64,000 nucleotides of DNA from NCBI GenBank assembly GCA_963722655.1, contig CAVRNT010000002.1, positions 71,461-135,460 on the forward strand, written 5' to 3'. The position numbers were made by a program, and so were the translations under genes. Below are positions 2,763 through 61,284 of the stretch, piece after piece; the stretch's first letter is position 1; each line of letters opens with the position of its first letter. The DNA is from an uncultured bacterium. Lineage in GTDB: Bacteria > Patescibacteriota > Minisyncoccia > UBA6257 > GWB1-50-10. Under the pieces are notes generated by a model. That model saw only the letters and a list, made by a program, of their open reading frames with translations. It ran no database searches and had not been told where the DNA came from.

Positions 2763-4594
2763 TTAGCTTGAATTGTTCTGGCATTTTTGCCGTTTCATCA
2801 AGTTGCCATCGACAAATTCGACGACCTTCTTCATTACTGAGTGAAATGACCTGGCGCCACCGCGTTCCAGTCTGCTTAGGGTTGCCGGATCGATTCCGAT
2901 CAACCGGGCAAGCCCTTTTTGACTGAGACCAATGGACAGGCGATAGCGGAGGAGTTTGCCCGCTAAATCATGGTCTTCCGACGCGAAGGGATCGTATCCC
3001 AGAAATGATATGACCGCTGGGATTTCCCTTGGCAGGGGTTTTGTCCTGTTCTTTTCCCAGTTCCAGATCGTCGCTTCATCGACTTTGATGGTGTGTGCGA
3101 CCTGTTTCTGCGTCATCTTCAGGTCCAGCCGCCGTCTCCTGATGTGGTCGCCGACTGTCGCGACTTGCCGGGGGTACGCCTTGGAAACGGGCTTTTTAGC
3201 GATTAATTGGACATCAAGAATGGCAACGCAGGGATGAGGATGCGTTGCCATTGAGGGGGAATTCAAGGAGTGGGGGACGTAGGACAGGTTTATTTGGATT
3301 TCATCGCCGGACACGATGATCTTCTCCGTTATGGTTTCGACGATCCTGCGTTTCTCGCTGGGTTCCAGGCTGGACCATCGCGAGTACAGGTCTTGAGCCT
3401 CGTTAACGACCTCGTCGCTCGATAGGTACTGTATCTTGAGGAAATCGATCTCTCCCTGCAATTCGGGCAGTTGTCTCTCGATTTGCTTGAAACGCTCGTC
3501 CAGCGGCTTGTAATGCCTCCCAACGGCCTCCTGGGGCACCGTCTTGTCCAAGTAGAGTTTCATGATCCGGTCCATCTCCTCCCGGATGGTCTTGGATTCG
3601 GCATCGATGGTTTCGAGGAGGCGCTCCTTTTCCCGGATGGTCTCATCCGCATGGCTCAGGTATTTCGCGATTTCTTCTGGGGAGAAGAAGAAAGCCTTGA
3701 GCTGCTCCTGGAAAACAGACTCAAGGTCGGCGGTGGCGATCTTGTTATGGCACTTGCGGCAGTAGTAGTTGGCGGATTTCGAGGGGACCGGCATCCCCGT
3801 GCCGCACGCGGAACAGTAAACGAGGCCGGAGAAAAGGTGAAGCGACTTCCTGGCGGGGGGTCTCCTTTGGGCGTGTTGTTCCTCAAGCATCTGGTTGCAA
3901 TGGTCCCACGTCTCCTCGGAGACAATCGGCTCGATTTCGGATAGCACCCATTCGTCTTCCGGTTTCAGAATCCACTTCTTTCCCTCACCAAGGGACTTCG
4001 TGTAATTGGCTCGTCTCAAACCCTTGGCACTCGGATCGCGGAGAAGCCGGTCAACCGTCGTGTCGCTGAACTTGGAACCGTTCCTTGTCCTGTGACCCCG
4101 CTCGTTGAGCATCCGTGCCACTGTCTTCTTGCGGCGGTGTTCGAGGAAAAGATCGTACATGAGCCTCCTGACGGGAGCCTCCTTCGGCTCGGGGACCAGT
4201 TTTCTGTCCAGCCAACGGTAGCCGAACGGCGCCGCTCCGCAGCGGTTTCCCAGCTTCGCCGTATCGGGACGGAGGCGGCGACCTGTCGGCTATCTCCTCG
4301 CGTTCACTGGGCCATGGCGGCGATCATGGTGTAAAAGAGACGGCCTGACGAACTCGAAAATGTCGGATCAATTCCTGGAGCGAAACGAGGTCGGCGTATA
4401 TTGCCGGAATATCTCGGCGAACTCCAAGAGTTCGCGGGTATTCGGCGAGCCGTGCAGCTTGGAGAATATAAGTGCGGTTATCCGTCCGCACTTGATGTCG
4501 TCGAGCATGCGCTGTGTTTCTGGATAGCCCATGACGGTCTTTCCGCTCATCGCCTCAAGGTGGTAAATCTCTTTCACCTCCCAGCCTTCGACTC
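2763..4594 (-). pseudogene. large serine recombinase that is frameshifted and N-terminally truncated: resolvase domain fragments, recombinase domain, zinc ribbon and coiled-coil
   Basis: ORF 2763..4160 carries the recombinase domain and the zinc-beta-ribbon 'LVYCSACGTG...YYCRKCHNK'. ORF 4368..4577 is a resolvase-domain piece 'GWEVKEIYHLEAMSGKTVMGYPETQRMLDDIKCGRITALIFSKLHGSPNTRELLEF'. The next resolvase segment, 'GIDPTFSSSSGRLFYTMIAAMAQ', is in a different frame at 4320-4400, so there are at least two frameshifts. The catalytic-Ser N-terminus is lost into the homopolymer block at 4595. Confidence 0.8.
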
Positions 4595-9763
<5,169 letters not shown>

Positions 9764-16451: not shown

Positions 16452-17075
16452 CTAATGACACAACAACCGATCTTTCATTCTACCCCAATACCCTATGGAG
16501 ACAGTATATATGAAGAAAACTATGAAGAAGCTGGCAACAACGTCGATTGTATAGTGCCCCCTGCCCGCTATTATGAAGAACGACTCCAGTATCGCCAGCG
16601 CGAGCATCGCATATTTACTCTTCTTGTCCCGCCACGACATAAGGAAAAACAACATGAATACCTGACCGACATGCCCGCTGGGGAAAGTTCCTCCCGTAAC
16701 AAGGACCTTCCCCAAGAGATCGAACGTGCCGGGCTCCATTGGTGTGGGGAGAGGCGTCAACGGAAGTATCGCCGCCCGGAATAGCTGGAAAAGCGCTATG
16801 CACGCGAGGTATAAGGGTAAGTCCTCGTATGATTTCTTGCGAATCACATAGGCTACAAAGCCGATGTCCGCGACCAGAAGGATTATGTCGGCGATATTGG
16901 AGTAGGCAGGATTGAATCCAAACAGCCGAAAGCCGAGATCGTTAAGAACGGGTCTGCTGCTTGCCACGCTGGAATAATGCGTCGAGACCGCATCCAGATA
17001 GCATCCTACGACCAGTAAGACCGCCGACAACACGAGTGCGGCCCAATACTTTTTATTGTATTTACATTTATGCAC
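16452..17075 (-). CDS. PAP2_C / sphingomyelin-synthase-like membrane phosphotransferase family protein
   Basis: Polytopic membrane protein with 'GGTFPSGHVG' (SGH motif) and 'GRGHYTIDVVASFF' (HYTxDV motif). Paralog of 53161..53829. Confidence 0.65.
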   Translation of the reverse strand: MHKCKYNKKYWAALVLSAVLLVVGCYLDAVSTHYSSVASSRPVLNDLGFRLFGFNPAYSNIADIILLVADIGFVAYVIRKKSYEDLPLYLACIALFQLFRAAILPLTPLPTPMEPGTFDLLGKVLVTGGTFPSGHVGQVFMLFFLMSWRDKKSKYAMLALAILESFFIIAGRGHYTIDVVASFFIVFFIYTVSIGYWGRMKDRLLCH

Positions 17076-34761: not shown

Positions 34762-34832
34762 GCGGAATTAGTACAGTGGTAGTACGCTTGCTTCCCAAGC
34801 AAGATGCACGGGTTCGATTCCCGTATTCCGCA
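34762..34832 (+). tRNA. tRNA-Gly(CCC)
   Basis: Cloverleaf read by hand: acceptor GCGGAAT/ATTCCGC, D-stem GTAC, anticodon stem CTTGC/GCAAG with loop TTCCCAA, T-stem ACGGG/CCCGT with loop TTCGATT. Confidence 0.85.
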
Positions 34833-34855
34833 CCCAAGATTGCCGGAATGGTAGA

Positions 34856-46489: not shown

Positions 46490-47581
46490 TCAAAGCACTG
46501 GCTGGTACTTCTTCTCCCTGAAAAGGTAACCTTCCAGGGAATACCGATCGTAACCGTAGAAGATATAGGCGATGGGGATGCCGATGAGGATGAGGTGCGG
46601 CCAGACGATCTCTCCGAAAAAGAGCAAAGAGAGGGTGAGCCAGAAAAGGAAAAAGAGCGAAGTGAAACGGATCTCTATTCCCAGTATGAAGAAGAGGCCG
46701 ATGAGGAGCTCGACGATCGCCGCGCCGAGAACGAGGAAATGCGGCTCAAAGCCTAGGAGTTTGTCGAGGTGGTACTGTTCAACGGTGAAGAGCGCCAAAT
46801 TATTATGGATTATCTTGGCGTACGCGGAGGCGTAGATGAGGGCGATGCCGAAGAGAACCCGCAGGATGGCGAAACTCCGCGGTTTCAGATATTCCCCGAC
46901 TTTGGAAAGCAACGTCGTGCCGGCCGGTCCTGCATTTACCGCTCTTTCGCGCCGACGAGCGATATACGTGTCAAAACTCAAACCGTGAGCACCGAGAATG
47001 AGAAGAACGATGATCTCGCCGAGATAGTTCACGTACGTGAGCATATAGATACCGTGGAACCAAATAGTAAAACCGAAAATCACAAGGGCGACAAAAGCGG
47101 CGGGCCGGACCCATAAGCCGATGATGGCCAAAACACCAAGGATCGCGAAAATACTGGTCAAAATTCCCGAGAACGGCCCAAAGGTCGAGAAAAGCGGCAA
47201 CTCCGGTCCGAACGTTGCCTGATAGTAAGCGCAGGCGAGGAAAGAAACACCGATGGTCAATCGCGCAATGAAGGGCGCGTATTTCTTCATCTTTACAAAG
47301 ACCGGATCAAGCCAGCGCTCGATAAAACGCAGAGTTGAGATCAAGAAAACGCAGAGAACGGTGAGGACGGCAATAAAAGCCCAGAGAACGAATTGATGCA
47401 AGTTCTGGACGACAACGTTCCACATATTGAACGAGGGTATGCTTACGGCCTCGTCGATCGAAGAGGATGAGAGAACATAGACCTCGTGGGCCGAGGCCAG
47501 GCCGGGCAAGGCCGCAAGGGACAAGAAAAAAGAGGCCAAACCGAACCTCGCCAATCTTCTCCAAATTGGCGCGAGGAGCAT
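46490..47581 (-). CDS. polytopic integral membrane protein (hypothetical)
   Basis: 363 aa with ~8 hydrophobic segments and a signal-like N-terminus. Confidence 0.55.
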   Translation of the reverse strand: MLLAPIWRRLARFGLASFFLSLAALPGLASAHEVYVLSSSSIDEAVSIPSFNMWNVVVQNLHQFVLWAFIAVLTVLCVFLISTLRFIERWLDPVFVKMKKYAPFIARLTIGVSFLACAYYQATFGPELPLFSTFGPFSGILTSIFAILGVLAIIGLWVRPAAFVALVIFGFTIWFHGIYMLTYVNYLGEIIVLLILGAHGLSFDTYIARRRERAVNAGPAGTTLLSKVGEYLKPRSFAILRVLFGIALIYASAYAKIIHNNLALFTVEQYHLDKLLGFEPHFLVLGAAIVELLIGLFFILGIEIRFTSLFFLFWLTLSLLFFGEIVWPHLILIGIPIAYIFYGYDRYSLEGYLFREKKYQPVL

Positions 47582-49920: not shown

Positions 49921-50250
49921 ATGGATATGAAGAACGAAGGCCACCCGGAGGGCTGCAAGTGCATGCTCTGCCAGGGCGGCAAGTGCGAGATGTGCGGGAT
50001 GAAGCATGGCTGCGGCATGGGTTGCGGCTACGGATATGGCTGTGGTTTCGGTCACCACCGGCATGTGTTGATCAGGATCATCATCGCCATCGTGATCGCC
50101 TCAGCGATCTTCTGGATCGGCACCCGCATCGGCGCCGTCATGGGCGGCTTCGGTTACGGACCGGGCTACCGGATGATGTATCGCGGCGGCTATTACCCGA
50201 TGATGGGCTACTGGCAAAACGCGACGGGCACTCCGTCGACGGCTAAATAG
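49921..50250 (+). CDS. Cys-rich / Gly-Tyr-Met-rich small membrane protein
   Basis: 'GCKCMLCQGGKCEMCGMKHGCGMGCGYGYGCGFGHH', then a TM 'VLIRIIIAIVIASAIFWIG', then 'GGFGYGPGYRMMYRGGYYPMMGYW'. Confidence 0.5.
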   Translation: MDMKNEGHPEGCKCMLCQGGKCEMCGMKHGCGMGCGYGYGCGFGHHRHVLIRIIIAIVIASAIFWIGTRIGAVMGGFGYGPGYRMMYRGGYYPMMGYWQNATGTPSTAK

Positions 50251-50266
50251 CAAGAACACAAACCAG

Positions 50267-50294
50267 AAAAACGCCCTTTTGAAGGGCGTTTTTC
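50267..50294 (+). terminator. rho-independent terminator
   Basis: aaaaacgccctt-ttg-aagggcgttttt. Confidence 0.75.
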
Positions 50295-50353: not shown

Positions 50354-50866
50354 ATGAAGAAGTTATTTTTCTCATTGTCACTCATAGCGGCCTTTTTTGT
50401 TTACCTCATCCTCAAACGCTCCGGGGGGACGGTGGCCATCGCGCCGGCGACTCCGGTGAACACGGCTGGCACCGGACCGAAGAAGCCGACGCCTTCGGCG
50501 CCGGTCGCCCAAACGACGCCGACCCCGTCGCAAACGCCCACGACCCCGACCGCTCCGGCGCCGCAACCGAAACCGAATGGACTTTACAACGATGGGACCT
50601 ACGTGGGCAGCGTCGCCGACGCCTATTATGGCAATGTTCAAGTGAAAGCGATCATCCAAAACGGCAAGATCGCCGACGTCCAGTTCCTCCAATATCCCAA
50701 CGACCGGGGCACTTCGATCGAGATCAACTCCCAAGCGATGCCATACTTGAAGCAGGAAGCGATCCAAGCCCAGAACGCCCAAGTCGACGTCATCTCCGGC
50801 GCCACTCAGACGAGCGCGGCCTTCGTCCAGTCCTTGAGCGATGCCCTCGCTCAAGCCAAAGCCTGA
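50354..50866 (+). CDS. exported FMN-binding domain protein (flavinylation substrate)
   Basis: Signal peptide. 'DGTYVGSVADAYYGNVQVKAIIQNGKIADV' and 'DVISGATQTSAA', which contains the [S/T]GAT covalent-FMN motif. Confidence 0.75.
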   Translation: MKKLFFSLSLIAAFFVYLILKRSGGTVAIAPATPVNTAGTGPKKPTPSAPVAQTTPTPSQTPTTPTAPAPQPKPNGLYNDGTYVGSVADAYYGNVQVKAIIQNGKIADVQFLQYPNDRGTSIEINSQAMPYLKQEAIQAQNAQVDVISGATQTSAAFVQSLSDALAQAKA

Positions 50867-50868
50867 AC

Positions 50869-51615
50869 ATGAGAGAGACCAGAACGATAATGGGAATGCC
50901 GATCACGGTGGAAATCGTCGACCCTAAGGCCTCGGAAGGTATCTTCGACGAGGTCTTTTCTTATTTCGAATACGTGGACGAAAAGTTCAGCCCATACAAA
51001 GAGGGAAGCGAACTTTCCCTCCTGAACTCCGGCGCGATCGCCGAGGACGATCGGAGCGAGGACATGCGCCTGGTCCTTGAGCTCGCCGAAGAGACCAAAC
51101 GGGAGACCGGCGGCTATTTCGACGTTCGGAACCGCGAAGGTCTCATTGACCCTTCCGGCCTCGTAAAGGGATGGGCGATCCGGAACGCCGCCCGCATCAT
51201 CGCCGAGCGGGGCTATGAGAACTTCTTCGTCGACGCCGGCGGCGACGTCACCGTGCGGGGTAAAAGCGGGCAAGGGCAAGCTTGGACCATTGGCATTCGG
51301 AACCCGTTCGCCCGGGACGGCATCGTCAAGGTCGTGCGGCTCGAAAATAGAGGCGGGATCGCGACCTCCGGCACCTACGTCCGCGGCCAGCATATCTGGA
51401 ACCCCAAAGACAAAAGCCGGCTGCTCACCGACCTTGCGAGCGTCACCGTCATCGGACCGGACGTCTACGACGCCGACCGTTTCGCTACGGCCGCCTTCGC
51501 CATGGGCCGGGAGGGGGCAAACCTTATTGAGCGGCTACCCGGACTCGAGGGATATTTCATCGACAAGGATGGCATGGCGACGATGACAAGCGGTTTTGAA
51601 AAATATGTGGCGTAA
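50869..51615 (+). CDS. apbE: FAD:protein FMN transferase ApbE
   Basis: 'MGMPITVEI', 'GLVKGWAI', 'FVDAGGDVTVRG', 'GGIATSGTYVRG'. Confidence 0.85.
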   Translation: MRETRTIMGMPITVEIVDPKASEGIFDEVFSYFEYVDEKFSPYKEGSELSLLNSGAIAEDDRSEDMRLVLELAEETKRETGGYFDVRNREGLIDPSGLVKGWAIRNAARIIAERGYENFFVDAGGDVTVRGKSGQGQAWTIGIRNPFARDGIVKVVRLENRGGIATSGTYVRGQHIWNPKDKSRLLTDLASVTVIGPDVYDADRFATAAFAMGREGANLIERLPGLEGYFIDKDGMATMTSGFEKYVA

Positions 51616-53140
51616 GCTTCTCGACTGGATCGACGGTATTTTGAACCGGGTCACGATGTACCGGCTTATTCTGTACTATTTGATCGCCCTGCTCGTCGTT
51701 GCGATCGGCTTCAGCGCCTTGAACGTCCTGCCTTACGACCCGCTCGCCCTCGCGGCCTCGGCGGTCTTCATCCTCGGCGTCTGCCTCCTCGCGAACGAGG
51801 TTTTTGCCAAGGTTTGGAAGGTGCCGGCGAATGCGGAGTCGGCCTACATCACCGCCTTCATCCTCACGCTCATCATCACGCCCCTCAAACTGCCGCACCA
51901 AGGAGCTTTCATCGAGACCGCCCTTTGGGCCTCCGCGATCGCCATCGCCTCCAAGTACGTCATCGCCATCAAGAAGAAGCACATTTGGAACCCCGCGGCC
52001 TTCGGCGTCGCCGCGACGGCGCTTTTTTTGAACGACCCGGCCACTTGGTGGGTCGCGACGGCCGCACTCGCCCCCTTCGTCCTTTTGGGCGGGCTGCTCC
52101 TCGTCCGGAAACTTCAGCGCTCCGATCTCGTTTGGAGTTTCTCCCTCGTCGCCCTCGCGACGATCGTCGCGACGAACGCCGGAGGCAACCTCGGCTTGCC
52201 CACGATTCTCCAAAGGGCCCTACTTGACGCCCCGCTTCTTTTCTTCGGCTTCGTGATGCTCACCGAGCCTTTGACCTCGCCGCCCACCCGGCCGCGCCGC
52301 ATCGTTTACGGCGCCTTTGTCGGTCTTCTCTTCGCCCCGGCGGTCCACTTGGGCAGCGTTTATTCCACGCCGGAGCTCGCGCTCCTTTTCGGGAACGTCC
52401 TTTCGTACCTGATGAGCCCGAAACAAAAGCTCGTTCTCACACTCAAGGAGAAGGTCCAAATCGCTCCCGATATGTACGACTTCGCCTTCGCGGGCGGCGA
52501 GGAAATGCGCTTCCGGCCCGGCCAGTACATGGAATGGACCCTAGGCCACGAAAAAACGGACAGCCGCGGCAATCGCCGTTACTTCACCTTAGCTTCGTCG
52601 CCGACCGAAGACGACATCCGGCTCGGCGTGAAATTCTACGAGCGGTCCAGTTCCTTCAAGCGGGCGCTTTTGAACCTAGACGATGGGCAAACCATCGTCG
52701 CCGGGCAGCTCGCCGGGGACTTCACTCTCCCGCGGGACAAGAGGAAAAAGCTCGCCTTCATCGCCGGCGGCATTGGCATCACGCCCTTCCGGAGCATGGT
52801 CAAATACCTTTTGGACAAAAAAGAGGTTCGGCCGGCCGTGCTCATTTATTCCAACCGGAACGCGGAGGATATCGTCTACAGCAACCTTTTCGCCCGGGCC
52901 GAAAGGGAATTGGACCTCAAGACCGTTTACACTCTGACCGAGACTGCGCCGGTCGATTGGCGCGGCGAGAAAGGGCGGGTGAGCGCTGCGCTGATCGCCC
53001 GGAACGTGCCGGATTGGCGCGAAAGGACTTTCTACGTCTCGGGCACGCACGCGATGGTCGCGGCGACGGAAAGCGTCCTCAAAGGGATGGGGGTGCCGCC
53101 GGGCCGGATCAAGACCGACTTCTTCCCAGGATTCGCCTGA
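51596..53140 (+). CDS. membrane protein fusion: N-terminal polytopic domain (NqrB/RnfD-like?) plus C-terminal ferredoxin-NADP-reductase-like FAD/NAD(P)-binding domain
   Basis: ~300 aa hydrophobic N-terminus with 'HIWNPAAFG'. The C-terminus has 'RFRPGQYMEWTL...RRYFTLASSP' (FAD binding) and 'IAGGIGITPFRSM' (NAD binding). The start is TTG 51596 or ATG 51605. Confidence 0.7.
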   Translation: MKNMWRKLLDWIDGILNRVTMYRLILYYLIALLVVAIGFSALNVLPYDPLALAASAVFILGVCLLANEVFAKVWKVPANAESAYITAFILTLIITPLKLPHQGAFIETALWASAIAIASKYVIAIKKKHIWNPAAFGVAATALFLNDPATWWVATAALAPFVLLGGLLLVRKLQRSDLVWSFSLVALATIVATNAGGNLGLPTILQRALLDAPLLFFGFVMLTEPLTSPPTRPRRIVYGAFVGLLFAPAVHLGSVYSTPELALLFGNVLSYLMSPKQKLVLTLKEKVQIAPDMYDFAFAGGEEMRFRPGQYMEWTLGHEKTDSRGNRRYFTLASSPTEDDIRLGVKFYERSSSFKRALLNLDDGQTIVAGQLAGDFTLPRDKRKKLAFIAGGIGITPFRSMVKYLLDKKEVRPAVLIYSNRNAEDIVYSNLFARAERELDLKTVYTLTETAPVDWRGEKGRVSAALIARNVPDWRERTFYVSGTHAMVAATESVLKGMGVPPGRIKTDFFPGFA

Positions 53141-53160: not shown

Positions 53161-53829
53161 ATGTCGCAACTGTTTTTGAGATACAAAACCTGTTTCCGCG
53201 ACCGAAAGTTCGTCTGGTCGTTCATCCTGGGGGTCCTCGTCCTCGCCGCCGGGATCGCGGTCTCGATCTTCGCCATCGCCTACGCCACGAACCGGGCCAG
53301 CAACTCGGTGACCGACCTCATTTTGAGCAACATCCCGGTCTTCAACGTAGACGACGCCTTCGTTTACGGACCGGTGATCTTCTGGCTCGTCGTCATCGGC
53401 TACACATTTTGGGACCCGAAGAAATTGCCTTTCACCTTGAAGAGCATCGGCGTTTTCCTCATCATCCGTTCGGCCTTCGTCAGTTTGACCCACATCAGTC
53501 CCTTCCCGACCCACGTTGAGATCGACTCCTCCGGGCTTCTCGCCGTCTTCACGACGGGCAAGGACCAGTTCTTCTCCGGCCACACCGGACTGCCATTTCT
53601 CATTGCCATGATCTATTGGCGGGATAAATGGATGCGGGCCTTCGCCTTGGCCGCCTCGTTCTTCTTCGGCATCATCGTCCTTCTGGGCCATCTCCACTAT
53701 TCCATCGACGTCTTCGCCGCCTTCTTCATCACGTACTCCATCTTCCACATCTGCCTCTCAATGTTCCACAATGACCGGCTGATCTTCCTCGGCAAAGACC
53801 CCGCCCTCACGCCGCAAACGCAAACCTGA
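53161..53829 (+). CDS. PAP2_C / sphingomyelin-synthase-like membrane protein
   Basis: 'FFSGHTG' and 'GHLHYSIDVFAAFFITY'. Paralog of 16452..17075. Confidence 0.65.
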   Translation: MSQLFLRYKTCFRDRKFVWSFILGVLVLAAGIAVSIFAIAYATNRASNSVTDLILSNIPVFNVDDAFVYGPVIFWLVVIGYTFWDPKKLPFTLKSIGVFLIIRSAFVSLTHISPFPTHVEIDSSGLLAVFTTGKDQFFSGHTGLPFLIAMIYWRDKWMRAFALAASFFFGIIVLLGHLHYSIDVFAAFFITYSIFHICLSMFHNDRLIFLGKDPALTPQTQT

Positions 53830-53837
53830 GCTCAGCG

Positions 53838-54236
53838 ATGGAAAGGTTCAAAAAAAACCAGGAGAAGTACATTGTGGCGGTGATGGCCGTCCTTACCCTC
53901 GTTCTCATCGTCCTTTTCATTGCCCTCATCCAGCAGTACCTGGACCTGCGTCAGCAAAGGATGATCGACGACCACGTTCTTTGGCTCTCTTTCATCAATC
54001 GCCACACGCCCTTGACCGCCGCGGACACCAACGTCATCCAGCCGTGGATGACCTTCGATTACGTTAACCGTGTCTTCAACCTGCCGCGGACCTACCTCCA
54101 AACCGCCCTCAGCGTGGGGAGCGCCAGTTACCCCCAACTCCCGCTCTACCGCTTCGCCGAATCGCAGAAGATTTCTCCCGCAACCTTCACCGACGAGGTG
54201 AGGAACGCCGTGCGGAGCTACGTCCCGGCGAAGTAA
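53838..54236 (+). CDS. membrane-anchored hypothetical protein
   Basis: 132 aa with an N-terminal TM. Confidence 0.4.
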   Translation: MERFKKNQEKYIVAVMAVLTLVLIVLFIALIQQYLDLRQQRMIDDHVLWLSFINRHTPLTAADTNVIQPWMTFDYVNRVFNLPRTYLQTALSVGSASYPQLPLYRFAESQKISPATFTDEVRNAVRSYVPAK

Positions 54237-54237
54237 G

Positions 54238-54861
54238 ATGGCCTCCTATACTTCCGTCCTCGGCGTTCTCCTTTCTTACGTCCTCCTTTACAAGTATTTT
54301 ACGCTCTTCCTAGCGATCTTCCTGGCGGGCATCATCGTGCCCATCCCGGCGAGCGAGCTTTTGATGGCCGTCGGCGCCTTTTCCGGCCAGGGCTACCTGA
54401 ATTTCTGGCTGGCGCTTCTAGCCGGCCTTTCTGGTAACGTTTTGGGCGATCTGGTGGATTATTCCCTGGCGAAAAGGTACGGCCCCAGATTGATTCGCCG
54501 CTTCCGCCTCAATCGGATAAAGTTCATCGACCAACTGGAAGCGGAGGTGCGGCGGGACGCGCCTTTCATGATCTTCGCGACCCGCATCGCGGGTGCCCTG
54601 GGGCCGGCGGTGAGCGTCCTTTCCGGCGTCTCCGGCGTCTCGCTTAAAAAATTCCTGCTCTACGACGTGACGGGCAACCTGGTGGACATCGGCGGGCTGC
54701 TCCTCATCGGCTACACCGTGGGGAGCTATTGGGAGAACCTTTCCGACATCGCCGGCATCGTCATCGCCATCCTCGTCGTCGCCATCGTGATGTTCATCCT
54801 CTGGCGGATATCACAGCGGATTTTCAAAAGGACCTTTCGCTATCATGACGAGCAAAACTGA
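54238..54861 (+). CDS. DedA / SNARE-associated (TVP38/TMEM64) family membrane protein
   Basis: 'GIIVPIPASELLMAVGAF', 'GNVLGDLVDYSLAKRYG'. Confidence 0.8.
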   Translation: MASYTSVLGVLLSYVLLYKYFTLFLAIFLAGIIVPIPASELLMAVGAFSGQGYLNFWLALLAGLSGNVLGDLVDYSLAKRYGPRLIRRFRLNRIKFIDQLEAEVRRDAPFMIFATRIAGALGPAVSVLSGVSGVSLKKFLLYDVTGNLVDIGGLLLIGYTVGSYWENLSDIAGIVIAILVVAIVMFILWRISQRIFKRTFRYHDEQN

Positions 54862-57955: not shown

Positions 57956-58026
57956 TGCGGGATCGTCTAATGGTAGGACACATGCCTCTGGAGCATGGTA
58001 TCTTGGTTCGAATCCAGGTCCCGCAG
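57956..58026 (+). tRNA. tRNA-Gln(CUG)
   Basis: Hand-folded: acceptor TGCGGGA/TCCCGCA (U1:A72 as in bacterial tRNA-Gln), D-stem GTCT/GGAC, anticodon stem CATGC/GCATG with loop CTCTGGA, T-stem CTTGG/CCAGG with loop TTCGAAT. Confidence 0.8.
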
Positions 58027-58041
58027 CTAATACTAATTTAA

Positions 58042-58811: not shown

Positions 58812-59321
58812 ATGCTTCTCTCAAAAGGTTCCAGGTTAGGAATGTGGCTAATTGCAGCGATCCTTGTTTGGGTCGTTGCCCAATTTATAGGCGGGGATCT
58901 ATTCGGTTTGATGCAAAACGACCGATGTTTCGCCGTTTTCGGCTGCAACGCTGGTTTTTTCGGCTACGACGCCTTCGTCCACCTCCTATCTGGGGCAATG
59001 CTCGCACTTTTCATTGTGTGGCTTGGAGAGGCGTACCCGCAGCTCAAGGTTGTATCGGAAAATTTTCTTAAGAGCGCGGTCATCGTTATCGCGATTTGCG
59101 CGCTCATAGAGACGTGTTGGGAGATGTGGGAATTCGGGGTTGATCACTTCAGAATGGATGTCCTGCACGAGAACCTGACGAACCCGAACGTCTTGTGGCA
59201 ACCGAGCAACAGCGACACGATGGGCGACGAGACGTTCAATCTTGCGGGGAGCATCATCGCCGTTTTGATGCTCGCGGCCATCAAAGGTGAAACGCCGACG
59301 GACGAAACCGGCCGATCTTAA
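58812..59321 (+). CDS. integral membrane protein (hypothetical)
   Basis: 169 aa with 4 hydrophobic segments. Confidence 0.45.
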   Translation: MLLSKGSRLGMWLIAAILVWVVAQFIGGDLFGLMQNDRCFAVFGCNAGFFGYDAFVHLLSGAMLALFIVWLGEAYPQLKVVSENFLKSAVIVIAICALIETCWEMWEFGVDHFRMDVLHENLTNPNVLWQPSNSDTMGDETFNLAGSIIAVLMLAAIKGETPTDETGRS

Positions 59322-59385
59322 GCGTTCTTCGATAAGCACCAATTTAGCCGCCAAAACGTATCAAAAAGCAAAGAGAAGGGGAACG

Positions 59386-61284
59386 ATGTTGTATAATACA
59401 CATATGAAAAGCCTTTTATTGAAGGCGGTTAAAGCCGCGCCGTTTCTTGTCGTAATCTCGGCTCTTATCATCGCTCAAAGCGCCTACGCGATGACGCCTA
59501 CCCTCACCGCCTACGCGACGGGTAGCGGGGACAACGTCCAATTGAACGTGAACGGCGATCCGAATGCAAGCGTAGTGTTGATCTACAACACCAGCGCATC
59601 AAGCTATCCGCAAAACAGCGTCATCGGCAACACTAACGCCAACGGTTCCTTCTCGATCGTTCTCAGCACCGCGACCTATGGCATCTCCCCGAACAGTTTG
59701 TTTGCCGTGAGCGTAAACAGCCAGCAGTCCAACTCCCTCGTTTGGCCGTACAGTGCGACGAGCACAACCTCGACCGCCTTTTCCTTGGGCCAGACAACGC
59801 TTTCCCTCCAGGCCGGCCAGACCTCGGCTGTCACGGCAAATAACCTTAACGGCGGCACTATCTATCTCGCGAGCAACTCCACGCCCTCGGTGGCAAACGT
59901 CTCGATCAGCGGCAGCCAGATAACGGTCACGGCCATCGCCGCCGGTTCCACGACCGCCAACTTCTGCCTCTCGACGAACACCTCGGCCTGCGCCGCCCTT
60001 TCGATCACGGTCCCGAGCGCGAACGTGTCGCCCATCACCCTCAGCCAAAGCAGTCCGTCCATCCCGTACGGCCAGAGCGTCTCAGTCACGATCGGGGGCG
60101 GGACCGGCAACTACTCCATCGTAAGCAACTCCAACCCCGGCGTCATCCAAACGACCTTGAGCGGCGCCTCAGTCAGCTTGTACGCGAACGGCACGAGCGG
60201 CGCGGCGGCGATCACCATCTGCTCCACCGATATGAGCTCCTGCGCCGTTATTAACGCCACAGCCACCGGTTCCCAGACCGGTTCCACCGTTTCCTTTAGC
60301 CAGGTCAACCCGACGCTTTCGCCCGGCCAGATCACGGCCGTGACCGTGAGCGGGGGAACCGGCACCTATTACGTTTCGTCCAATTCCAATACGAACGTGG
60401 TCCAGACCAATCTTGTGAACGGCGTCCTCACCCTGACCGGCATCTCGAACGGTTCCGCCGTCCTCACCGTTTGCGCCTCCTCCGGTGCCTGCGGCGTGAC
60501 GACGGTGACGGTCTCGAACCCCGGCACGACCTCGTTCGCGCTCAGCCAGTCCACTTTGAACATGGCGCTGAACCAGACAGCGAGCGTGACCGCATCCGGC
60601 GCCGGCGGATATTACGTCTCGACGAACAGCAATCCCTCCATCGTCACTCCAACGATAAACGGCAGCACCATCACACTCATTTCGGGCGCCAATTCCGGCA
60701 CCTCCAATTTGAGCATTTGCCAGACCGGCGGCCAGTGTGCCGCGCTCGCCGTGACCGTGGGGACGGGCACGACGAACGCCTCGAATATCGTTCTTAGCCA
60801 GGTACTTTCCGTCGGCCAGGGCGTGAACCTCTTCATCTCCGGCGGGGCGGCCCCTTACTACCTCTCCTCGAACAGCACGTCGGCCTTCACCGCTACCATC
60901 GTCGGCGGCAACGCCTTGATGCTCTACGGCGCGAGCGCCGGGAGCGGCTCGGTCCAGGTCTGCGGCTCCATTGGCGGCTGCGCGACGGTGAACGTCGTGG
61001 TCGTAAGCGCCCCGGCCTCGTCCGGGAGCACGACCTCGGGTACGCCTGCGGCGACCGGCGGCACCTACCAATTCACATATAACTTCACGATCGGGGCCAA
61101 GGGCGCCGACGTGACCGCCCTCCAGAACCGCCTGACCGCGCTCGGCTTCTACTCCGGCCCGGTGACCGGATATTACGGCTCGCTCACCGAAGCCGCCGTC
61201 GAGAAATACCAGACGGCTCACGGCCTCAATTCTCTCGGCAACGTCGGTCCGGGAACACGGTCTTTCCTTAACGCGGGACAATAG
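59386..61284 (+). CDS. cell-surface protein with ~6 tandem ~90-aa Cys-pair repeats and a C-terminal peptidoglycan-binding domain
   Basis: Signal peptide. Repeats of the form '...SNSN..V....I.G..I.L.G...GS......C.....CA...VTV'. The C-terminus 'GADVTALQNRLTALGFYSGPVTGYYGSLTEAAVEKYQ' looks like PG_binding_1. A 'gaagggga' SD sits upstream. Confidence 0.6.
   Translation: MLYNTHMKSLLLKAVKAAPFLVVISALIIAQSAYAMTPTLTAYATGSGDNVQLNVNGDPNASVVLIYNTSASSYPQNSVIGNTNANGSFSIVLSTATYGISPNSLFAVSVNSQQSNSLVWPYSATSTTSTAFSLGQTTLSLQAGQTSAVTANNLNGGTIYLASNSTPSVANVSISGSQITVTAIAAGSTTANFCLSTNTSACAALSITVPSANVSPITLSQSSPSIPYGQSVSVTIGGGTGNYSIVSNSNPGVIQTTLSGASVSLYANGTSGAAAITICSTDMSSCAVINATATGSQTGSTVSFSQVNPTLSPGQITAVTVSGGTGTYYVSSNSNTNVVQTNLVNGVLTLTGISNGSAVLTVCASSGACGVTTVTVSNPGTTSFALSQSTLNMALNQTASVTASGAGGYYVSTNSNPSIVTPTINGSTITLISGANSGTSNLSICQTGGQCAALAVTVGTGTTNASNIVLSQVLSVGQGVNLFISGGAAPYYLSSNSTSAFTATIVGGNALMLYGASAGSGSVQVCGSIGGCATVNVVVVSAPASSGSTTSGTPAATGGTYQFTYNFTIGAKGADVTALQNRLTALGFYSGPVTGYYGSLTEAAVEKYQTAHGLNSLGNVGPGTRSFLNAGQ

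Follow-up and report, generated by a model that had tools for sequence, protein, structure and literature searches.

A three-gene NQR/RNF-like flavin module in a Patescibacteriota genome and its ApbE without an export signal

How can a flavin transferase without any export signal serve a substrate that is exported from the cell? This question is raised by a locus in a 64,000-nucleotide stretch of DNA (the window) from an uncultured Patescibacteriota bacterium (GenBank assembly GCA_963722655.1, contig CAVRNT010000002.1, positions 71,461 to 135,460 of the forward strand). At positions 50354-53140 of the window, three translationally coupled genes on the plus strand code for an FMN_bind subunit (FMN, flavin mononucleotide), an ApbE-family flavin transferase and a protein in which an RnfD/NqrB-like membrane domain is fused to a reductase domain of the ferredoxin reductase (FNR) type. 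An earlier interpretation, made without database searches (the sequence-only reading), had proposed that these genes form an extracytoplasmic flavinylation module. All three genes are confirmed, each with a Pfam match, and the locus is probably a typical member of a class of systems already described from genomes. The puzzle lies in its ApbE.

The first gene (50354..50866, plus strand) codes for an NqrC/RnfG-like FMN_bind subunit of 170 aa (PF04205, E=3.5e-10), in which a signal or anchor at the N-terminus is followed by a Pro/Thr-rich linker and then by the FMN-binding domain. The second gene (50869..51615, plus strand) codes for a short form of the ApbE-family FAD:protein FMN transferase (FAD, flavin adenine dinucleotide) with 248 aa (PF02424, E=1.7e-41). 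It had been described as following immediately, and indeed it starts 2 nt past the FMN_bind stop codon. Stop-codon read-through or recoding from FMN_bind into ApbE is ruled out: the two genes are in different frames, and decoding TGA as a sense codon leads to a TAA after eight codons. The third gene codes for the fusion protein. Its start had been placed at 51596, which is a TTG, but a 100% identical database copy starts with the ATG at 51605 and has 511 aa. From this ATG, the open reading frame (ORF) overlaps the end of the ApbE gene by 11 nt. Residues 1-272 (51605..52420, plus strand) make up the predicted RnfD/NqrB-like polytopic membrane domain, which is attributed on the basis of PF03116, an AlphaFold2 (AF2) model, Foldseek and charge alternation. 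Residues 273-511 and the stop codon (52421..53140, plus strand) make up the FNR-like reductase domain, which is predicted to bind FAD and reduced nicotinamide adenine dinucleotide or its phosphate (NAD(P)H).

The C-terminal domain of the fusion matches PF00175 (NAD_binding_1) at residues 388-492 (E=5.8e-18), and the NCBIfam models for Fre, flavohaemoprotein (Hmp) and NqrF cover residues 286-510. The model of the full-length fusion has a predicted local distance difference test score (pLDDT) of 83. When the C-domain was searched with Foldseek, the modules of flavohaemoglobin, NqrF, Fre and cytochrome b5 reductase were found at E ~1e-15, with a target-normalised template modelling score (TM-score) of up to 0.85. 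The domain has the two-domain architecture of the FNR type, a beta-barrel plus a Rossmann fold. The motifs RYFTLAS (the R-x-[YF]-[ST] flavin motif) and GGIGITP (the G-G-x-G-x-x-P nucleotide motif) are invariant in 29 homologues. Together with PF03116 and the model, these matches and motifs bear out the proposed fusion of a polytopic membrane domain to an FAD/NAD(P)H-binding ferredoxin reductase module.

For the N-terminal domain, the sequence-only reading had raised the question of whether it resembles electron-transfer membrane subunits at all. PF03116 (NQR2_RnfD_RnfE) is assigned to fusion residues 159-273 with 29.7 bits (gathering cut-off 27.7). This family is found in 19 of 26 members of the fusion family, with a best E of 1e-13 and 29.7-32.7 bits for the protein from the window. 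A profile built from the 26 N-domain sequences matches RnfD of Azotobacter vinelandii (8ahx_D, E=3.9e-6) over its C-terminal half only; a PDB profile search with the full-length fusion alignment returned only FNR-type matches. The AF2 model of residues 1-277 (pLDDT 82, predicted TM-score 0.82) was compared with the PDB by Foldseek. The top 15 matches are all RnfD or NqrB, with query-normalised TM-scores of 0.54-0.70; the highest TM-score is 0.70 (8rbq_D), and the best E is 1.6e-5 (9eri_D). The matches that follow are urea transporters, which are known distant relatives of the RnfD/NqrB fold (PMC12174285). Judged from profile, Pfam match and model, the N-domain is homologous to RnfD/NqrB, with a predicted membrane fold of about ten helices.

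Lys and Arg residues alternate cleanly between the loops of the membrane domain in the 29 homologues. The N-terminus, the loops 120-129, 168-172 and 229-232 and the linker 271-280 carry 1.8-3.3 positive charges each, and the intervening loops carry 0-0.3. Because of this alternation, an N-in, C-in topology is predicted as far as sequence can show. This places the FNR module on the cytoplasmic side, as had been assumed, and not outside the membrane. A flavinylation threonine in the periplasmic loops had also been suggested for inspection. The best candidate is T147, which precedes an invariant WW (A-[ST]-W-W). It is rejected, as T or S occurs only in close relatives and the wider family has E, I, L, V, A or N in this position; the site is defined by the WW rather than by residue-level correspondence to NqrB T236. 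This agrees with Huang et al. (2024, mSystems, PMC11334425/PMC10979944), who modelled the protein pair of Ktedonobacter racemifer with AlphaFold-multimer and reported that the fusion does not conserve the Thr that is flavinylated in NqrB/RnfD (PMC10979944). Invariant acidic residues are found inside the RnfD-like membrane helices, namely E78, E221 (in a TEPLT motif) and E257 (PELAL). RnfD/NqrB is regarded as the subunit that translocates ions, so this domain may still be coupled to ion movement.

The exported partner of the fusion is the FMN_bind subunit. Its N-terminus consists of MKK followed by hydrophobic residues (positions 3-21, 19 aa, Kyte-Doolittle 1.91), and a Pro/Thr-rich linker of ~55 residues joins this stretch to the FMN-binding domain. 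The C-terminal region contains VDVISGAT, in which SGAT represents residues 148-151. This segment aligns to the SGAT of the solved FMN-binding domains 8p2a_A (E=1e-13) and 8p2b_A. The match to the rnfG model TIGR01947 is weak (E=1.7e-4). SGAT is near-invariant among the homologues, a few of which have SGAS, TGAT or SGSS. By this alignment, Thr151 within D-V-I-S-G-A-T (codon at 50804..50806, plus strand) is the predicted site of a phosphoester-linked FMN. The sequence-only reading had recognized both the SGAT target motif and the signal peptide. Export is supported by the homologues: those from Actinobacteria have lipoprotein signal peptides with lipoboxes (e.g. VTGC, LAGC, TAAC), those from spirochaetes and from the alphaproteobacterial Methylocapsa have cleavable signal peptides, and the remaining ones have an MKK start and an anchor. 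Thus, the subunit is clearly predicted to be exported, and in the window it may be held by an uncleaved N-terminal anchor.

Systems of this kind are not new. Meheust et al. (2021, eLife, PMC8238504) described an "NQR/RNF-like" class of flavinylation-associated systems from genomes, which is defined by a PF03116+PF00175 fusion whose gene lies no more than five genes away from one for ApbE or FMN_bind. They reported 127 clusters, mainly from Actinobacteria and the candidate phyla radiation (CPR), in a screen limited to clusters with a predicted signal peptide (PMC8238504). The locus in the window has exactly this composition, with a PF03116+PF00175 fusion and with FMN_bind and ApbE immediately upstream. 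It shares with the published system the order of the fused domains (PF03116 N-terminal, PF00175 C-terminal), the FMN_bind and apbE companions, the home in the CPR, the proposed one-way path from NAD(P)H to the outside and the equally unconserved flavinylated Thr of the membrane domain. Nothing essential differs. In the searchable literature there is no experimental study of this class, which is known bioinformatically only.

The class is considerably larger than first reported. Among up to 8,000 candidates, there are more than 7,000 relatives of the fusion when clustered at 90%. The N-domain alone yields 359 clusters at 50% identity (E<=1e-30), and most of the proteins have 490-515 aa. The locus was confirmed in at least 403 species genomes (one genome per species), which belong to Patescibacteria, Saccharibacteria, Chloroflexota, Alpha- and Gammaproteobacteria, Spirochaetota and Actinobacteria. 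The lower number of 127 clusters likely arose because the original screen demanded a predicted signal peptide. Gene order was surveyed with profile hidden Markov models on stop-to-stop translations of 80 related loci, 71 of which include upstream DNA. The order FMN_bind-ApbE-fusion on one strand is found in 60 of these 71, which span at least six phyla (Patescibacteria, Chloroflexota, Proteobacteria, Spirochaetota, Saccharibacteria and Actinobacteria). FMN_bind and fusion without ApbE occur in 4 of the 71, and the fusion alone in 7. The three-gene arrangement, for which a search in other genomes had been proposed, is thus a recurrent one.

We consider it likely that NAD(P)H donates electrons to FAD in the FNR domain and that these pass on to the flavin site(s) of the RnfD-like domain, then to the FMN on Thr151 and finally to an acceptor outside the cell. 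The fold and motifs suggest that the cytoplasmic FNR domain of the fusion would oxidise NAD(P)H on FAD. The electrons would then traverse the membrane via the RnfD/NqrB-like domain. In the known complexes, this fold holds riboflavin towards the cytoplasm and covalent FMN towards the periplasm, ~8 Å apart, and RnfG/NqrC is located outside the membrane on a single N-terminal helix (PMC12174285). The membrane domain has not conserved the threonine that carries covalent FMN, and the FMN that occupies the outer flavin site is therefore probably the one tethered to Thr151 of the exported FMN_bind subunit. This follows Huang et al., who suggested that the flavin site in the membrane domain is sampled by the small subunit's tethered FMN (PMC10979944). 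Once reduced, the exported flavin would pass its electrons on to an acceptor outside the cytoplasm, whose identity the locus does not reveal; a conserved gene for a terminal acceptor is not found among the recurrent neighbours in the 80 loci. The path from cytoplasmic NAD(P)H to an extracytoplasmic flavoprotein, as formulated in the sequence-only reading, matches the published model (PMC8238504, PMC10979944). The novelty implied there does not hold, as the class was published in 2021; the mechanism is a rediscovery, and the sole feature worth following is the signal-less ApbE. Some points weigh against this assignment. The sequence similarity to RnfD is modest and barely exceeds the Pfam cut-off, and the match in the PDB profile search is confined to half of the domain. 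A cytoplasmic ApbE with an exported substrate is at odds with the common view of ApbE as a secreted lipoprotein. Finally, the electron flow, its direction, its donor (NADH or NADPH) and its acceptor are all inferred, as is the occupancy of the cofactor sites.

A comparison with canonical systems underlines how reduced the module is. With RNF (RnfABCDGE) and Na+-NQR (NqrABCDEF) it has in common the RnfD/NqrB membrane fold, an FNR module that resembles the FAD/NADH domain of NqrF and a small subunit that, like RnfG/NqrC, has an N-terminal anchor and a C-terminal SGAT. It differs in lacking RnfA/E, NqrD/E, Fe-S subunits, RnfC and NqrA, in having the reductase fused directly to the RnfD-like domain, in the loss of the covalent-FMN Thr and in an electron flow that is proposed to run one-way outward rather than in a loop. 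Genes for Fe-S or other RNF/NQR subunits are found neither in the locus nor among the conserved neighbours in the 80 loci, so that the distinction from canonical NQR/RNF that had been drawn on this ground is upheld. The same logic of a cytoplasmic FNR module and a polytopic membrane domain that passes electrons outward is seen in MsrQ-like and PepSY-like cytochromes fused to FNR and in bacterial NOX (SpNOX). Such systems are often encoded beside apbE and FMN_bind genes (PMC8238504), and SpNOX is among the Foldseek matches of the fusion, via its FNR part. However, these systems use haem-binding ferric-reductase or PepSY membrane domains, whereas the fusion has the predicted flavin-binding RnfD/NqrB fold and no haem ligand pattern.

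As a rule, ApbE is secreted as a lipoprotein and works outside the cytoplasm, and the known cytoplasmic ApbEs serve cytoplasmic substrates (PMC12052999). The protein from the window is an unambiguous member of the family (PF02424, 142.9 bits). It begins with MRETRTIMGMPITVE, which aligns to the first strand of the mature ApbE fold in crystal structures. The ApbE chains in the PDB (E. coli, Salmonella, Listeria) match at E=1e-18 and cover residues 4-86 and 89-244; ~45 residues of the canonical fold are missing. Across 51 ApbEs from such clusters, the conserved residues include K100, G101, G125, D126, S167, H175, D203 and T207, so that the GKG, GGD and TSG motifs, His175 and D203-x-x-x-T207 of canonical flavin-transferase ApbEs are kept. 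These positions are presumably the residues of the FAD/Mg2+ site. The ApbE from the window has no signal peptide, lipobox or hydrophobic N-terminus; over 19-aa segments, its hydropathy peaks at 0.66. A start further upstream, from which a signal peptide would be translated, was considered and rejected, as the upstream open frame contains no ATG, GTG or TTG.

This is not a peculiarity of one genome. An export signal on the cluster ApbE is not found in any of ~60 related loci. In these, the ApbE ORFs start 0-10 nt past FMN_bind, and in about half of them there are at most 15 open codons ahead of the start of the ApbE fold. Longer upstream frames overlap the FMN_bind gene and lack a hydrophobic N-terminus. 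The best 120 ApbE homologues in the database have 239-263 aa, with one at 302 aa. The names "thiamine biosynthesis lipoprotein" and "ApbE family lipoprotein", which such short signal-less ApbEs carry in databases, are wrong for this clade. Gene fusions that would fix the topology (FMN_bind-ApbE or ApbE-RnfD) are absent from the 80 loci; none occur among the best 120 ApbE homologues or the 150 top-ranking N-domain representatives, which have at most 589 aa. The texts of Meheust et al. 2021 (PMC8238504) and Huang et al. 2024 (PMC10979944) do not discuss the missing signal. The term "extracytoplasmic flavinylation", as used in the sequence-only reading, is therefore doubtful.

Three explanations may be ranked. 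We prefer, tentatively and with less than even confidence, that the cluster ApbE is a dedicated cytoplasmic flavin transferase, which would attach FMN to Thr151 of the small subunit before Sec export of the latter as an anchored, cleaved or lipoprotein form. Attachment in the cytoplasm is suggested because an export signal is lacking here and in the related clusters. The strict order of FMN_bind and ApbE and their translational coupling would fit a modification at the site of synthesis. No such maturation route before export has been described for an exported ApbE substrate. The closest precedent is the cytoplasmic ApbE of Klebsiella pneumoniae, which likewise has no signal peptide and acts in the cytoplasm, where it flavinylates a soluble NADH:fumarate reductase (PMC12052999). 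There, however, the substrate is cytoplasmic, whereas here the sole conserved candidate is an exported protein. Loading in the cytoplasm might have been explained by a Tat signal on FMN_bind, but this is not a general solution: RR/KR motifs occur in few homologues (those of loci L055, L066, L070 and L058), and most have Sec-type signals, either MKK or lipoprotein. A different cytoplasmic role for the cluster ApbE, combined with a second ApbE that acts outside, ranks next, and an export route that is not recognized ranks third.

The different role would make the cluster ApbE a cytoplasmic accessory, for example an FAD pyrophosphatase, a protein that supplies flavin to the membrane domain's non-covalent site(s) or a structural component, while a secreted ApbE encoded elsewhere flavinylates FMN_bind. 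It would account for the missing export signal in the ~60 loci. Some ApbE/Ftp proteins hydrolyse FAD to FMN (PMC4767422), and the loss of the covalent-FMN Thr of RnfD/NqrB in the fusion family implies a non-covalent flavin that needs to be loaded. We nevertheless regard this role as unlikely. The core residues that are common to canonical flavin-transferase ApbEs are conserved, and the strict FMN_bind-ApbE order with its 0-10 nt spacing points to a pair of substrate and enzyme. Organisms such as rhizobia probably own a periplasmic ApbE, yet retain the extra one in the cluster, and the very small CPR genomes may hold no other ApbE. The conflict would vanish altogether if FMN_bind were not exported but had an N-out, C-in anchor, so that the entire flavin chain faced the cytoplasm. 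The anchor in the window has two positive charges on each side (MKK ... KR), which leaves its orientation ambiguous for a single sequence. The homologues with lipoboxes in Actinobacteria and with cleavable signal peptides in spirochaetes and alphaproteobacteria do not fit a cytoplasmic protein, Pro/Thr-rich linkers are typical of extracytoplasmic tethers, and NqrC and RnfG are periplasmic (PMC12174285). This arrangement is thus very improbable. What the module serves is a separate matter, for which the neighbouring genes are the main source of evidence. It might be an assimilatory reductase, whose exported flavin reduces extracellular Fe(III) or free flavins for iron uptake. In the 80 loci, a VIT1-type ferrous-iron transporter adjoins the three genes in 4 (rhizobia and one Chloroflexia genome), six VIT1 clusters were reported by Meheust et al. 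2021 (PMC8238504), and the two-component regulators that adjoin 21-23 loci suggest that expression is regulated. However, only a few of the loci have VIT1, and the window has neither this transporter nor any iron-transport gene near 50354-53140. The commonest neighbours, two-component systems and MacAB-like exporters (ABC-type exporters plus adaptor, 11-26 loci), are uninformative with respect to iron. An iron function is about as doubtful as the accessory role of ApbE. The least probable proposal, to which we attach hardly any weight, is the role in envelope redox repair that the sequence-only reading had drawn from the downstream genes, according to which the module feeds electrons to extracytoplasmic repair or lipid-carrier functions of PAP2_C, DedA and MsrA/MsrB. 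In its favour, eight genes on the same strand are separated by gaps of at most 20 nt, and there is no strong terminator between 53140 and 55758. Yet in small genomes, unrelated genes are often packed tightly in the same direction. The downstream genes code for PAP2_C (53161-53829, plus strand), a 132-aa membrane protein with one strongly hydrophobic helix (53838-54236, plus strand; Kyte-Doolittle 3.31), DedA/VTT (54238-54861, plus strand) and then MsrA and MsrB, and they are found near the fusion gene in only 0-2 of the 80 loci. The MsrA sequence opens with the GCFWC active site, and a hydrophobic N-terminus is lacking in MsrB; since both are devoid of export signals, they are probably ordinary cytoplasmic enzymes. 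Because of this lack of synteny and the cytoplasmic Msr enzymes, the repair idea has no comparative support, and PAP2_C, DedA and MsrA/MsrB are not considered part of the system.

If the published model is right, this is among the simplest known flavin-only routes by which electrons of NAD(P)H cross a membrane, in a system that is widespread in the CPR, Chloroflexota, Actinobacteria and rhizobia. To reconcile a cytoplasmic enzyme with an exported target would establish either flavin attachment before export or a new role for this ApbE clade, and it would also correct the "lipoprotein" database names. If attachment before export is true, organisms such as CPR bacteria could build an extracytoplasmic flavoprotein without exporting FAD.

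The recurrent neighbours in the 80 loci further include a small Gly-rich secreted protein in CPR genomes (7 loci). None of the recurrent types (two-component systems, MacAB-like exporters, the Gly-rich protein and VIT1) is encoded in the window. In several CPR genomes, the three genes are located directly beside a MacA/MacB-like exporter (adaptor, ATPase and permease), a two-component system and the small secreted protein, e.g. in loci L001 (1380-4945), L019 (about 4000-8641), L053, L004, L006 and L015. The secreted protein has ~135-155 aa, and in it a Gly-rich linker is combined with a beta-rich domain that is conserved (SITVKL.DGST...NSDGS.TAQ.IQ).

Upstream of the module, a palindromic, GC-rich hairpin with A and T runs on both sides (50266..50294, 13-pair stem, 3-nt loop) separates it from a gene for a Cys-rich protein. 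It is likely a terminator, judged from its structure, and would set the 5' limit of the transcription unit. The gene for the Cys-rich protein (49921-50250, plus strand) is a 109-aa ORF without a Pfam or NCBIfam match. Its product has a Cys/Gly/His-rich N-terminal segment with many CxxC-like pairs, a single transmembrane helix and a tail rich in Gly, Tyr and Met, and it may bind metal. It is not conserved beside the module in the 80 loci. On the other side of the module, the 132-aa ORF between PAP2_C and DedA is not assigned to a Pfam or NCBIfam family and was not found in the related loci.

Some observations concern other parts of the window. An AT-rich, microsatellite-like stretch at 4760-8590 is followed, within these limits, by 607 A (4887-5493), 3,058 T (5494-8551) and ~35 C. 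The homopolymer stretch is almost certainly an assembly artefact, and any annotation across it is to be distrusted. A second PAP2_C-like coding region (16461-16826, minus strand) is 33% identical over 125 residues to the protein encoded at 53161-53829. At 46490-47581 (minus strand), a polytopic membrane protein of 363 aa is encoded that starts with a signal-like segment and has a weak DoxX match below the cut-off (E=2e-4). As read from its translation, the 665-aa protein encoded at 59287-61284 (plus strand) is secreted and has many Ser/Thr/Gly-rich repeats of ~90 residues, and it ends in a segment that resembles a peptidoglycan-binding domain. Searches of the window with Rfam and ARAGORN gave only two matches, a tRNA-Gly(CCC) at 34762-34834 and a tRNA-Gln(CTG) at 57956-58027.

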